Assembly: GCF_964194155.1 (NCBI RefSeq)
Contig: NC_135890.1
Span: 91,574,001-91,638,000, forward strand
Length of the DNA: 64,000 bases
Origin: Cetorhinus maximus
Taxonomy: Eukaryota
Reading direction: 5' to 3'
Under the pieces are notes generated by a model. That model was not told where the DNA came from and made no database searches. It saw only the letters and a program-made list of their open reading frames with translations. Shown piece after piece: positions 2,801 to 22,279 of this stretch (the first letter of the stretch is position 1; every line of letters starts with the position of its first letter). Position numbers and translations under genes: made by a program.

Positions 2801-3076
2801 NNNNNNNNNNNNNNNNNNNNNNNNNNNNNNNNNNNNNNNNNNNNNNNNNNNNNNNNNNNNNNNNNNNNNNNNNNNNNNNNNNNNNNNNNNNNNNNNNNNN
2901 NNNNNNNNNNNNNNNNNNNNNNNNNNNNNNNNNNNNNNNNNNNNNNNNNNNNNNNNNNNNNNNNNNNNNNNNNNNNNNNNNNNNNNNNNNNNNNNNNNNN
3001 NNNNNNNNNNNNNNNNNNNNNNNNNNNNNNNNNNNNNNNNNNNNNNNNNNNNNNNNNNNNNNNNNNNNNNNNNNNN
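2801..3076. other. Assembly gap (276 N)
   Basis: Run of N. Confidence 1.
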
Positions 3077-3615
3077 GGGGGATATGGGGGGGGGGGGATG
3101 GGGGAGGGGGATGGGGGAGGGGGGGGGATGGAGGGGGGGAGGGGGGGGGGATGGAGGAGGGGATGGGGAGGGGGGGGGGATGGAGGGGGGGGATGGAGGG
3201 GGGGAGGGGGGGGGGATGGAGGAGGGGATGGGGAGGGGGGGGGATGGAGGGAGGGGGGAGGGGGGGGGATGGAGGGAGGGGGGAGGGGGGGGATGGAGGG
3301 AGGGGGGGGGGGATGGAGGGGGGGAGGGGGGGGGGATGGAGGGAGGGGGGGGGGGGGATGGAGGGAGGGGGGGGGGGATGGAGGGAGGGGGGGGGGGATG
3401 GAGGGGGGGAGGGGGGATGGAGGGAGGGGGGGGGGGGATGGAGGGAGGGGGGGGGGGATGGAGGGGGGGAGGGGGGGGGGATGGAGGGGGGGAGGGGGGG
3501 GGGATGGAGGAGGGGGGGGGATGGAGGAGGAGGGGGGGGAGGGGAGGAGGAGGGGGTGGGGTGGGGGGGTGGGGGGAGGGGGGGTGGGGGGGAGGGGGGG
3601 TGGGGGGGAGGGGGC
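3077..3615 (+). repeat. G-rich low-complexity minisatellite, approx. (G7-10 ATGGAGG)n
   Basis: Almost pure G/A with recurring GGGGGGGATGGAGG. The Gly- and Pro-rich ORFs over it are artefacts. Confidence 0.95.
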
Positions 3616-15212: not shown

Positions 15213-15356
15213 GAGGTGTCAGCTGTGGCTCAGTTCATAGCACCCTCGCCTTTGAATCAGAAGGTTGTGGGTTCATGTCCCACTCCCGGAAACCAAGAAC
15301 TGTGAATGTACTCGAAAGAATTACATGCGATCTGTTGATAGCTCGAAAGAGTTACA
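15213..15356 (+). mobile_element. Short tRNA-headed SINE, solo copy (same family as the 20035-21105 array)
   Basis: GAGGTGTCAGCTGTGGCTCAGTTCATAGCACC...GGTTCATGTCCCACTCCCGG...CTCGAAAGAGTTACA. Confidence 0.85.
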
Positions 15357-16727: not shown

Positions 16728-17050
16728 CTGGAGAAGAAAAAGCACAAAACATTAAGAAAAAAATGGATTTCTTTAAAGCTCTGCTGCTTCTGTTCAATGT
16801 TGTGAATCTTGTAAACACTAGTGCCTCATTACTGCCTTCCACTATCTGGGAAAGATTTGCAAAATAGTGGATACCAGAAAAATTAGATTATAAGGAGATA
16901 TGACAAAGGAAGTGGAGAAATGAGAATACAGTAGAATCAGAAATTTATGGAGGCAACTAGTCAGCACATTGTGTCTGTACTAAAATGACATATCCAGTCT
17001 AATCCTACTTTCCAGCTATTGATCCGTAACCATGAAGGTTGTGGCACTTT

Positions 17051-17466
17051 TCACAGCCAATGAAGTACTTTTGTAGTGTAATCACTGTTGTAATGTAGGA
17101 ACTGCAGCAGCCAATTTTTGCATAGCAAGCTCCCTATGTTTGCTAGGGAGAGCGATGTGATGCGATAATGACTAGATAATCTGTTTATGTTCTGTTGATT
17201 GAGAGATAAATATTGACCAATGCACTGCAGACATCTCCCCTGCTCTTCCTTGAAATACTGCCATGGGATATTGTACATCCACCAGGCAGATTGGGCCTCA
17301 GTTTGATGTCTCATTGGAAAGATGACACCTCCAACAGTGTAACACTCCTCAGTACTGCACTGAAAAGTCAGCCTTGATTTTGGTGCTCAAGCGTGGAAGT
17401 GGGACTTGAATGCAGAACCTTGTGATTCAGAGGTGAGGGTGTTACTAAATGAGCCACGGCTGACAC
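17051..17466 (-). mobile_element. Deu-domain tRNA-SINE inserted into a CR1 3' end
   Basis: tRNA head GTGTCAGCCGTGGCTCA...GGTTCTGCATTCAAGTCCCAC plus Deu core. Flanked by CR1 3' sequence at ~16960-17050 and ~17470-17764. Confidence 0.7.
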
Positions 17467-17872: not shown

Positions 17873-19205
17873 CCCTGCACACTGTTTCTATTCAAATAAT
17901 CAGCAATGCCCTCGTGAATGCCTCGATTGAACCAGCCTCCACCACACTTCCAGGCAGTACATTCCAGGCACATTGAGAAAGATGAGGGGGATAGTTTGTC
18001 TTTGTTGCAATTACATAGGATGTCATTTGTGACATTAAGAGCCATTTCTGTACTACGGTATCCTTTTCAGCAACATTTCAATTATTAATGCAATGCCAAT
18101 CATCCTTTCTGGTCAAGTAAGGAAACAACTTAAACAGTTCAATCTCACTACTGTGTGTAGCAAATGCTTCTTGGAGATTTGAAAAATTTCAAATTCGTGA
18201 ATCTTTTTTTTGTTCGACTTTTCTTTCTCTCTCTCTCTCTCAATTCAATCTTTTTTGTCCTCTTTTTATTTCCCCACAGACAAATGTTTGTCTGGACATG
18301 AGCACAACTCAAAAGTGCATCGTTTAATCCCCTGAACTTGCCGACCAATTTGTGCATTAATAGTGCCATGCGTCATCAGGTTGCCATTACTTTTCTCGCA
18401 AAATTCAGCCCATTCTTCCCATTCTACAGATTTGAGCACAAAAAAGATCCCATGTCCCCTATTCTTTAAGTAGTGAAATGGGATCTTTTACATCCACCTG
18501 AGGGGGGAGCCGAGGCCACAGTTTAACGTCTAATCCGAAAGACAGCGCCTGCAACAGTGCAGCACTGCCTTAGTTTCTGTACTATATACTATGTATTTCT
18601 ACATCCTGCACTGGAATATTAGCCTAGGTTTTTGTGCTCAAATCTGTAGAAAGGGAAGAATGGGCTGAATTTTGCGAGAAAAGTAATGGCAACCTGATGA
18701 CGCATGGCACTATTAATGCACAAATTGGTCAGCAAATTCAGGGGATTAAGAGATGCACTTTTGAGTTGTGCTCATGTCCAGACAAGCATTTGTCTGTGGA
18801 GAGATAAAGCGAGAACAAGAAAGATTGAATTAAGAGAGAGAGAAAGAAAAGTCGAAGGAGAAAAAAAAAAGATATTCACGAATTTGAAATTTTTCAAATC
18901 TCCAAGAAGCATTTGCTACACACACTAGTGAGATTGAACTGTTCAAGTTGTTTCCTTTCTTGACCAGAAAGGTTGACTGGCATTGCATTAATAATTGAAA
19001 TGTTGCTGAAAAGGATACCGTAGTACAGAAATGGCTCTTAAAGTAACAAATGACATCCTATGTGATTGCGTCAAAGACAAACTATCCCCCCTTATCTTTC
19101 TCAATGTGTCTGGAATGCATTGCCTGGAAGTGTGGTGGAGGCAGGTTCAATCAACGCATTCAAGAGGGCATTGGCTGATTATTTGAAAAGAAACAGTGTG
19201 CAGGG
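17873..19205. repeat. Long inverted repeat: arms ~17873-18445 and ~18629-19205, ~185-bp spacer
   Basis: Arms are reverse complements at roughly 90-95% identity by eye. Mirror ORFs 18148..18369(-) and 18704..18928(+) both begin MALLMHKLV. Confidence 0.95.
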
Positions 19206-19536
19206 ACAACCCCAGTCTATCCAATCCTTCCTCTTAGCTAAAATTCTCCATTCTTCAATGTTACAAAATGTTTAAGGAAACAATGGTTTGTGAGAGGATT
19301 GAAGGAAACATCTCAGAAAAGAACAAGATGAGAGCAGAATTCTATCAGAATTGCACCTCGAGTATCTTGTTCAATATTGTTTTGAACCATATCACAAACA
19401 AGCCAATGGAATTTAGAAATGTAAGTGGACCTGTGATTAAATGGGTCCTTTCACTACAGCCAATTGGAACTTCTTGAAAGAAAAGTCGCACAAAGGAAAA
19501 TATTAAAAATCACAACACAGATACCAAAAGTAGTAC

Positions 19537-19982
19537 CTTAAATTCTGGATTCTTTGCTTTGTCGACACAGGGTGAAACAAACATTGGCCGACCCTCTAAC
19601 TCCTGGCGGTCCAGCCGCAAGGCATCGGTAGCCGCTTTCTCCTCCTCAAACTCCACATAACAATATCCTCGAAAAAGTCCTCTATTACTGTAAACAGGGC
19701 GGATGTCTGCAATCTGACCAAAGCTTTCAAATATCGCCTTCAGCCTCTCCTCGGGATTGGGCATTGAATATGAGAGATTACTGACAAACACAGTCAGGTC
19801 ATCCTTGCTGTTATCGTGGAGAACTTTGTTCCTCGTGGCAGCTACAGCTTTTTGTTTTTGCAATGCTGGAGTCTCTAGGATCTTTGTGTTGTTTTTACGA
19901 CCAAACAGACCACATTCTGTTGACATATCCTCTTCCTCAGCTTCTTCCGGTTCCCCAGCTCGTGACTTTTTACTTGGTTGAT
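19537..19982 (-). CDS. SART3: SART3 exon 16 (RRM1)
   Basis: tttcag|AT CAA CCA...TVFVSNLSY...FRGYCYVEF...RPMFVSPCVDKAKNPEFK|gtacta. 446 bp. Confidence 0.95.
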
Positions 19983-20034
19983 CTGAAATTTAAAGATGAA
20001 TTATTAGAAATTTCCCTCATGGTCATAAATGGAG

Positions 20035-21105
20035 CAGGGAATGGGAAACTCTTTCAAGTTATCAACAGTCACAGATTGCAACTCTTTCGAGTACAATCAC
20101 AGTTCTTGGTTTCCGGGAGTGGGACATGAACCCACAACCCTCTGATTCAAAGGCGAGGGTGCTATGAACTGAGCCACAGCTGACACCTCAGGGAATGGGA
20201 AACTCGAGTTATCAACAGTCACAGATTGCAACTCTTTCGAGTACAATCACAGTTCTTGGTTTCCGGGAGTGGGACGTGAACCCACAACCCTCTGATTCAA
20301 AGGCGAGGGTGCTATGAACTGAGCCACAGCTGACACCTCAGGGAATGGGAAACTCTTTCGAATTATCAACAGTCACAGATTGCAACTTCTTTCGAGTACA
20401 ATCACAGTTCTTGGTTTTTCCAGGAGTGGGACATGAACCCACAACCCTCTGATTCAAAGGCGAGGGTGCTATGAACTGAGCCACAGCTGACACCTCAATG
20501 TGAAACTCTTTCGAGTTATCAACAGTCACAGATTGCAACTCTTTCGAGTACAATCACAGTTCTTGGTTTCCGGGAGTGGGACATGAACCCACAACCCTCT
20601 GATTCAAAGGCGAGGGTGCTATGAACTGAGCCACAGCTGACACAAAATTCTTTCGAGTTATCAACAGTCACAGATTGCAACTCTTTCGAGTACAATCACA
20701 GTTCTTGGTTTCCGGGAGTGGGACATGAACCCACAACCCTCTGATTCAAAGGCGAGGGTGCTATGAACTGAGCCACAGCTGACACCTCAGAGAATGGGAA
20801 ACTCTTTCGAGTTATCAACAGTCACAGATTGCAACTCTTTCGAGTACAATCACAGTTCTTGGTTTCCGGGAGTGGGACATGAACCCACAACCCTCTGATT
20901 CAAAGGTGAGGGTGCTATGAACTGAGCCACAGCTGACACCTCAATATGAAACTCTTTCAAGTTATCAACAGTCACAGATTGCAACTCTTTCGAGTACAAT
21001 CACAGTTCTTGGTTTCCGGGAGTGGAACATGAACCCACAACCCTCTGATTCAAAGGCGAGGGTGCTATGAACTGAGCCACAGCTGACACCTCAGGGAATG
21101 GGAAA
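20035..21105 (-). repeat. Tandem array of 7 x ~150-bp tRNA-derived SINE units
   Basis: Each unit has A-box-like TGGCTCAGTTCAT, B-box-like GGTTCATGTCC and two ACTCGAAAGAGTT motifs. Bounded by direct repeat CAGGGAATGGGAAA (20035-20048, 21092-21105). Confidence 0.95.
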
Positions 21106-21216
21106 GACAAACTGAAGCAACAGAGGTGTTAATGGTTGGTTCATTATGTTATGAAAGATACACAGCTGATGAGCATTGTTTGATTAAGGATTCAGACCAC
21201 ATACAAATAGGTCAGG

Positions 21217-21360
21217 AGGTGTCAGCTGTGGCTCAGTTCATAGCACCCTCGCCTTTGAATCAGAGGGTTGTGGGTTCATGTCCCACTCCCGGAAAACCAA
21301 GAACTGTGAATGTACTCGAAAGAGTTACAATCTGTGACTGTTGATAACTCGAAAGAGTTA
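21217..21360 (+). mobile_element. Short tRNA-headed SINE, solo copy with 15-bp TSD
   Basis: Reverse complement of the array unit, flanked by TACAAATAGGTCAGG at 21202-21216 and 21359-21373. Confidence 0.9.
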
Positions 21361-22279
21361 CAAATAGGTCAGGTGCCCCTTTGCAGGGCTGTTAATTAGT
21401 TTATTAGTGAATTAATTTCACTGTTGTACTCAGAGTATGAAGAGAGTCAGCTAGAACACTGGGTTAGTAGTTAGGAAGCAAAGATCTATAATGCTGCATA
21501 CTGTGAATAAACTTACTAACAAGGAAAAGATCTGTGTCCTCTTCCATACTTCACCATCTGGCTTGGATCTGTTTAACAAGGGGAACAGTCCCATAGCAGA
21601 ATACAAGCCCAGTGGTGGTGAAAAGAAACTAGTGTAAACCAGTGTTAAATCTGTGATTTTGATCTTGATCATCAGCAATCCCACAGCAGCTTCAACTTTT
21701 ACCTAGTTCCTTTAAAACAGCAAGCTTTCCAAGGCACCTCATAGAAGACAAGAGAGATGTATGGGGAAATGGGAGAAGGGTTAGGAGGCTGATGGAGAAA
21801 ATGACACTGATGAGCTCTTCAAAGGAGGACAAGAGCCCCTTACACCTCTTATATCTATCTATCCTTATATACTGTAAAATTAGAACTATTCACAAGCCGA
21901 TAAGAGATTTGAAAAAGATTTTTAAAATAAACTACTACATCCTAACCAACTCTACCTTCTGATTTCCTAAATTGCTGTACTATTTGTGAATACATTATAT
22001 ATTATTTACAGTTGAAGTATCATATATAAAAATGACTAAATCCATCATTTAAAATGGGGATACATCTATGCCCCAGTTTAATTATCCTCGCCCTCTAACC
22101 CTGCTTCACGTGAAGACTACACTTGGCCTTGACTCCATGGGACAGTAAAGAGTAGAAGTCATTAAAAGTAAAAACAAAACATTCTGGAAATACTCAGCAG
22201 GTCTGGCAGCATTTGTGGAGCAAGAAACAGAATTAACGTTTCAGATTGATGACACTTCATCAGATGTCAGTTCTCCTCG

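Follow-up and report, generated by a model that had tools for sequence, protein, structure and literature searches.

How a seven-unit SINE array may have been assembled at one target site in an intron of SART3

How do seven closely similar copies of a short interspersed element (SINE) come to lie head to tail at a single target site? The question is raised by an intron of SART3 in Cetorhinus maximus, within a stretch of 64,000 nucleotides (contig NC_135890.1, positions 91,574,001 to 91,638,000), hereafter the window. Tandem Repeats Finder places the array at 20035-21105 with a period of 150 and 7.1 copies, in agreement with an earlier note on the bare sequence, which had described seven head-to-tail units of about 150 bp. 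The units are on the minus strand of the window, i.e., the SART3 sense strand: the translated neighbouring exon is SART3 (top PDB match 7xx8, E 5e-39), and its acceptor (19982/19983) is 52-53 nt from the array, as that note had also stated (53 nt). With respect to splicing, the array lies upstream of the probable branch region. The reading preferred here, which we hold with even confidence, is repeated priming at a regenerated target combined with RNA-to-RNA jumps, in events that were largely non-independent (a burst or a reloading complex) and not chance re-hits.

The array and its empty site

The array consists of seven tRNA-headed SINE units of about 141 bp in four target-bounded blocks, with 13/14-bp target copies between them. 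On the sense strand the order is target, (unit 1, filler, unit 2), target, (unit 3, T4, unit 4, filler, unit 5), target, (unit 6), target, (unit 7), target, where T4 is a run of four T. The 14-mer direct repeat is found at 20035, 20189, 20339 and 21092, with a variant copy at 20788, and the target-site duplication (TSD) measures 13 bp, or 14 bp if the T common to the SINE end is counted. On the sense strand, T4 occurs only once, at 20647. These internal target copies, the fillers near 20496, 20644 and 20942, and the lone T4 had all been pointed out in the earlier note, and all are present. The features of the array are the following:

20035..20047, minus strand: downstream (3') copy of the target site, 13 bp long, or 14 with the T common to the SINE end; organisms B and C have it once in their empty sites
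20048..20188, minus strand: unit 7, majority haplotype, block 4
20189..20201, minus strand: internal target copy
20202..20338, minus strand: unit 6, block 3; terminal hairpin lacks 4 nt, a loss also seen in unit 2 of L084
20339..20351, minus strand: internal target copy
20352..20495, minus strand: unit 5, distinct haplotype also found in dispersed copies (e.g., unit 3 of L082); putative first-primed unit of block 2
20496..20504, minus strand: foreign filler, a putative RNA-to-RNA jump joint; one substitution relative to the filler at 20942-20950; takes in the first G of the next head
20505..20643, minus strand: unit 4, 5' end clipped by 2-3 nt
20644..20647, minus strand: T4 run, the end of a terminator-bearing SINE variant, fused to the next head without a target copy; a joint class common at many loci
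20648..20787, minus strand: unit 3, variant with built-in terminator
20788..20800, minus strand: internal target copy, one substitution
20801..20941, minus strand: unit 2, putative first-primed unit of block 1
20942..20950, minus strand: foreign filler, seen again in arrays of contigs C3, C6 and C11 and matching the 3' flank of monomer L085 (C10)
20951..21091, minus strand: unit 1
21092..21104, minus strand: upstream (5') target-site copy

The outer repeat had been taken for a 14-bp TSD, and the comparison with related species then proposed bears this out. Contigs of two related organisms (B and C) cross the locus with one target copy: X5 record 12 covers 19156-20038 and then 21104-21194, and X9 record 18 covers 19176-20045 and then 21104-21170, with 14 and 11 letters, respectively, differing from the window over about 880 upstream bases. 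With one target copy in these empty sites, the direct repeat must be a true TSD and the insertion lineage-specific; the SINE itself is young and lineage-specific too. Sequence depth on the SINE unit in organism A exceeds that in B or C by orders of magnitude, which fits a young expansion. It is very improbable that one unit was inflated during assembly. No single sequence record examined spans the array, as such an artefact would allow; however, each unit and joint has variants of its own, several of which are found at other loci, short-read contigs contain both outer junctions, and there are 1,854 comparable joints genome-wide.

The SINE family, its joints and its fillers

The SINE is abundant. 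In the genome, exact matches number 4,602 for a 44-mer of the unit and 10,644 for the tail motif (controls, 0 and 2); as the exact tail motif occurs in 46 of 68 sampled units, the number of long-form copies is estimated at about 15,000. Stacking is a property of the whole family: an exact head follows within 30 nt at 1,854, or 17% (raw), of the exact tails. The stacking that the earlier note described at one locus is real and is not peculiar to SART3. A sample of 174 clusters at loci numbered L, of which 89 were monomers and 85 were arrays of 2-12 units, was array-enriched by design and drawn mostly from contig C1. In this sample a TSD, mostly of 14-16 bp, was found at 108 of 168 clusters (51/87 monomers and 57/81 arrays), and of the 175 joints, 113 were scored as copies of the local target, 20 as direct or U-run, 39 as foreign (about 12 of which proved on inspection to be short or mis-anchored target copies) and 3 as unparsed.

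The SINE ends in a hairpin and has no poly(A) tail. Motifs resembling the A and B boxes are present in the head, judged by eye against a consensus, and ARAGORN and Rfam gave zero matches on the unit (no tRNA and no snRNA head). The varying U-run ends at joints would lend indirect support to transcription by RNA polymerase III (Pol III). The head (5' ~73 nt) aligns with an old long SINE at 17040-17466 of the window (minus strand), which we take to be a full-length SacSINE1/DeuSINE-like element and whose lineage is the likely donor of the young head; the short forms, in which the A-rich linker is longer, seem to be ancestral. Several identities were rejected. A satellite or SINE-derived satellite does not agree with linkers that are locus-specific target copies or foreign flanks, and not uniform; a consensus with a built-in linker, or a dimer master of fixed form, is contradicted by joint and unit make-up; membership of SINEU, by the lack of an Rfam match and of an A tail; and a retrozyme or rolling-circle origin, by the reasoning that no local target copies would be left between units. 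A literature search covering few subscription journals returned no description of this family. One SINE-bearing segment is present at 19 places (L092-L110, on contig C24 and small contigs), i.e., it was spread via segmental duplication.

The make-up of the array itself is heterogeneous. Among the units of the window are a variant with a terminator, another that bears a filler and a third of distinct haplotype, that is, at least three template types, and plain duplication therefore fails. Among the sampled arrays, 65 of 85 have units that differ at one subfamily feature at least, and 36 of 85 at two at least.

The fillers that are not target copies are the ends of RNAs from other SINE copies. 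For example, the L035 filler agrees over 20 nt with the flank of L227, a monomer on another contig, and extends 4-5 nt past the L227 TSD, to a T3. L223 and L224 share a filler with unequal numbers of T. As for the window filler, five junction matches are found in four arrays on four contigs, two of them within the SART3 array, and monomer L085 matches as well; a seventh match, L235, is a different filler. The L085 TSD holds the window filler plus the first 6 nt of the SINE head, the units upstream of the filler are near the majority haplotype and those downstream are varied, a pattern that would fit a homology-assisted jump onto an L085-type read-through RNA, L085 being a candidate donor. The earlier suggestion that reverse transcriptase (RT) jumped between SINE RNAs thus gains ground from fillers traced to 3' flanks of other copies. 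When 24 fillers were compared with 168 flanks, the preferred-site class being left aside, matches of at least 13 nt were limited to L035-L227 and L144-L143.

Some fillers resemble target joints of arrays not far away. The foreign filler of L144/L215 (C1, ~149.86 Mb) is identical over 15 nt to the target joint of L143/L216 (C1, ~148.38 Mb), and the L005 filler (C1, ~6.67 Mb) agrees at 14 of 15 nt with the target joint of L053 (C1, ~7.89 Mb). The L144 units beside the filler differ from the L143 units. This sharing over 1.2-1.5 Mb may reflect concurrent local events.

An improbable alternative is that multimeric read-through Pol III transcripts from master arrays were copied whole. It would account for the lack of T4 in the units save at one joint, for the preferred-site target occurring as filler at the unrelated sites L157, L158 and L224, and for the identity of the L144 filler with L143 joint sequence. 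Nevertheless, the local target copies in most joints are beyond what a distant master could supply, the downstream partners of the window filler vary by locus, and the unlike units of L144 and L143 do not suggest a common transcript. Such multimers, thought plausible in the earlier note, are not needed to explain the SART3 array.

Why one site was hit repeatedly

A matrix built from 66 non-preferred sites gives, as an estimate from sequence alone, about 9 million effective targets. Assuming about 12,500 loci, the chance re-hit of an occupied site would be about 0.14%, versus the 17% of tails followed by a head. Target scores are alike at stacked and single sites (34 vs. 32, p = 0.92), the SART3 site being the 12th lowest of the 66. 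Likewise, the divergence of 5' and 3' units is similar (first 1.15%, last 1.05%; n = 80, p = 0.46), so no age gradient was detected along the arrays; a ranking of ages by tail type was dropped, since divergence gave it no support. In the window, blocks 1 and 2 cannot be derived by duplication from each other or from units 6 and 7, which implies at least three primings. The low re-hit chance, the equal scores, the equal divergence and a rare filler present twice in one array favour non-independent events, and the target copy recurring between blocks of differing template type supports the repeated insertion at one site that the earlier note had proposed.

Under repeated priming with jumps, an endonuclease would nick a loosely specified target and priming would occur at the base of the hairpin. 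On reaching the RNA's 5' end, RT could jump to another SINE RNA, whose 3' flank or U-run would be kept as filler; alternatively, the 13-16 nt target overhang would be joined there. Copying of this overhang would restore upstream flank and target and leave a 3' end where the original nick had been made, and there a new RNA could be primed. The SART3 array would then represent 3-4 primings and 3 jumps, and some arrays would gain further units through later duplication. Across the family more than one route is at work, including time-separated re-insertion and later duplication.

Several observations weigh against this reading. Ancestral-type short units are 3'-most in eight arrays, four of them outside the preferred repeat, and 5'-most in one, a polarity that suggests real time-separated additions. 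Of 53 arrays, 34 have uniform target/head joints (and in about 4 of the remaining 19 the departure is an artefact of matching), every target joint of the window is uniform, as duplication predicts, and blocks are repeated in L144, L141 and L116. Searches for donors of the L058 and L031 fillers gave no source copy that matched, and the search for the L059 filler returned a second array and an empty look-alike site, with no occupied donor. Finally, the re-hit estimate leaves out chromatin hot spots, and a second insertion is just 110 bp away.

Time-separated re-insertion, in which each block belongs to its own generation, the site being hot by nature or made so by the first SINE, with template jumps within events, is a less probable explanation but not a remote one. 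In addition to the polarity and the neighbouring insertion just mentioned, different SINE subfamilies and LINE (long interspersed element) pieces are stacked at a preferred site in an old DDE_Tnp_4 transposon, and time-separated re-insertion is the published view for SINEU-3 (PMC4494074) and for Drosophila tandems (PMC5932611). The first SINE might make the site hot by open Pol III chromatin, by homology-assisted 5' joining or by read-through RNA pairing with its own target copy. On the other hand, stacked sites have no higher target score, unlike P-element tandems (PMC5932611), there is no overall age gradient, and a filler with five genome-wide junctions is found twice in the SART3 array.

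The third possibility, multiplication of a single insertion by unequal exchange or by slippage involving TSDs and units, with variants brought in by gene conversion from dispersed copies, is unlikely. The uniform joints and block repeats speak for it, as do rare haplotypes recurring through L032 and L143, and duplication has been proposed for clam arrays (PMC11481361). It is unable, however, to make joints without a target copy or with the flank of another locus, blocks 1 and 2 of the window differ in make-up, and the lengths of joints or U-runs vary within L074, L124, L156 and L117. Duplication as the sole origin of the SART3 array is excluded, whereas units 6 and 7, each a block by itself, may derive from it. 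The argument of the earlier note against crossing-over alone holds for the array overall, these two single-unit blocks apart, and in other arrays duplication is visible.

A candidate driver, related systems and neighbouring features

A candidate for the machinery came from mixed LINE-SINE stacks, through which a LINE was discovered. Its tail has 171 exact matches in the genome, and an intact two-ORF (open reading frame) copy lies at L211:713-6851 (minus strand), with ORFs of 731 and 1303 aa from stop to stop. ORF2 has an APE endonuclease domain (PF03372) and an RT domain (PF00078) and is 50% identical over 100% of its length to Xenopus Tx1 ORF2 (TX1 149 kDa protein); its highest-identity match is a ray protein, which, like the SacSINE1/DeuSINE-like element, fits a cartilaginous fish as the probable host, and the nearest solved structure is human L1 ORF2p. 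By these comparisons, the LINE would be placed in the Tx1 clade, closest to Tx1. It has no poly(A) and ends in a 5-bp stem-loop resembling the terminal inverted repeat of the SINE; a fold program predicted a hairpin for the LINE end and a longer alternative fold for the last 61 nt of the SINE. The sequence that LINE and SINE have in common is just this terminal hairpin of about 15 nt, and TSD length and the mixed stacks also agree. In 30 LINE ends read, a target copy plus a SINE head came next in 8 and another LINE piece in 5 (some loci being the same or duplicated), giving stacks of the types LINE-TSD-SINE and LINE-TSD-LINE. A pattern search for the LINE with negated upstream sequence gave 47 matches, 30 of which were inspected and proved without exception to be variants or truncations of the SINE. 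The SINE family is likely copied by the ORF2 protein of a Tx1-clade LINE.

A point against this attribution is that targets are T|A at 30/30 LINE ends, as in the ACA subfamilies of the SINE (41/45), while those of the array subfamily are T|T (78/88, in a sample partly chosen for T|T). The exact driver of the array subfamily may be an unseen sister Tx1; otherwise, the split could arise from RNA bases after the hairpin pairing with the primer to choose the target. Among the sampled clusters the target class can be predicted from the SINE subfamily, which implies two drivers or RNA-primer pairing. Going further, a Tx1 ORF2 complex might recycle its own target, re-priming the regenerated nick after each 5' join with several different RNAs per event and sometimes with sequence from sites attacked nearby (L144/L143, L005/L053). 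Processive target-primed reverse transcription of multiple RNAs, in which RNA-primer pairing steers each subfamily to its target class, would then have left its record in the ~2,000 joints. This fuller model is tentative, and we give it somewhat less than even credence.

A recurrent, loosely preferred target is located inside an old repeat carrying a DDE_Tnp_4 fragment. It lies about 850 bp beyond the fragment (L212:3460-3822, minus strand, and many loci), and the repeat is of 70-80% identity. The fragment is presumably Harbinger-like. Moreover, LINE fragments at the independent loci L186, L193, L195, L197 and L202-L204 start about 202-206 nt from the 3' end, some of them in target-separated tandems, and this common start points to a short, defined LINE RNA or to a strong stop of RT. 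The L211 LINE, which has a long CAG-rich simple repeat upstream, is suited to an activity assay.

TSD-separated tandem SINEs are already known. In crocodilians, SINEU-3 is moved by the Tx1-clade LINE Tx1-Mar, and its tandem copies, which sandwich the TSD, were interpreted as insertions that followed one another at a strongly preferred target (Kojima 2015, PMC4494074). The present SINE resembles SINEU-3 in its mobilisation by a Tx1-clade LINE, if the attribution above is correct, and in a preferred site within an old DNA transposon, TSD-sandwiching tandems and 5' additions from other templates; it differs in having a tRNA-like head and a LINE-like hairpin end instead of a U1/U2 snRNA head and poly(A), in reaching 12 units in our sample and in stacking also at unique low-scoring sites (PMC4494074). 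Another example is the clam Scapharca broughtonii, with TSD-(SINE-TSD)n and TSD-(SINE)n-TSD arrays of 4-15 units, in introns too; both architectures also occur here, but clam arrays hold about 3% of copies in highly similar units, whereas here they involve about 17% of tails, mixed templates and both architectures in single arrays (PMC11481361). L1 target-site triplications (Weber 2006) contain different RNAs at one site and prompted the suggestion that the machinery remains in place to take up another RNA, although they are few two-element cases against some two thousand scorable joints here (PMC1687206). Drosophila double-insertion tandems, including R1, have a target copy in the joint and later growth by unequal exchange, as here, while P-element tandems favour better-than-average targets (PMC5932611). 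Head-to-tail SINE multimers are also formed by Dip, B2 and Ves (Dip up to eight units), which unlike ours are poly(A) SINEs (PMC8466645), and squamate SINE-derived satellites are head-to-tail but built from SINE portions (PMC10702118). The shark SINE family SacSINE1/DeuSINE (PMC5499810) is probably that of the old window SINE with the similar head; the central domain and L2-type tail of this family are absent here, a ~70-nt tail with a Tx1-like hairpin end taking their place. Template jumping and non-templated addition have been reported for human L1 ORF2p in vitro (PMC10830420). What is new is a poly(A)-less, tRNA-headed SINE tied to Tx1, its frequent stacking at ordinary sites and joints that name their templates. 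An intact Tx1, together with young joints that can be read in their thousands, makes the question of reloading in place accessible to statistics and assay. Arrays of this class show that ~150-bp tandem arrays can arise straight from retrotransposition, and their fillers point to active source copies; if true, multi-RNA insertion bears on the concatemer risk of retrotransposon-based gene insertion.

Three other features of the window concern the surroundings of the array, and the two SINEs among them were absent from the earlier note:

21216..21358, plus strand: separate sister-subfamily monomer, inverted relative to the array and only 110 bp from it, with its own 15-bp TSD (21202-21216 / 21359-21373)
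15213..15352, plus strand: third SINE locus of the window, other tail subfamily, 94% identical
19537..19982, minus strand: SART3 exon (RRM), downstream of the array

A second SINE insertion nearby (~0.1-1.5 kb, mostly in opposite orientation), as at window 21202-21373, is also found at L081, L082, L085 and L118, and in the window this monomer and the array could pair within the SART3 pre-mRNA. Finally, a long G-rich low-complexity tract is present at 3086-3614, adjoining a stretch of N at 2801-3076.
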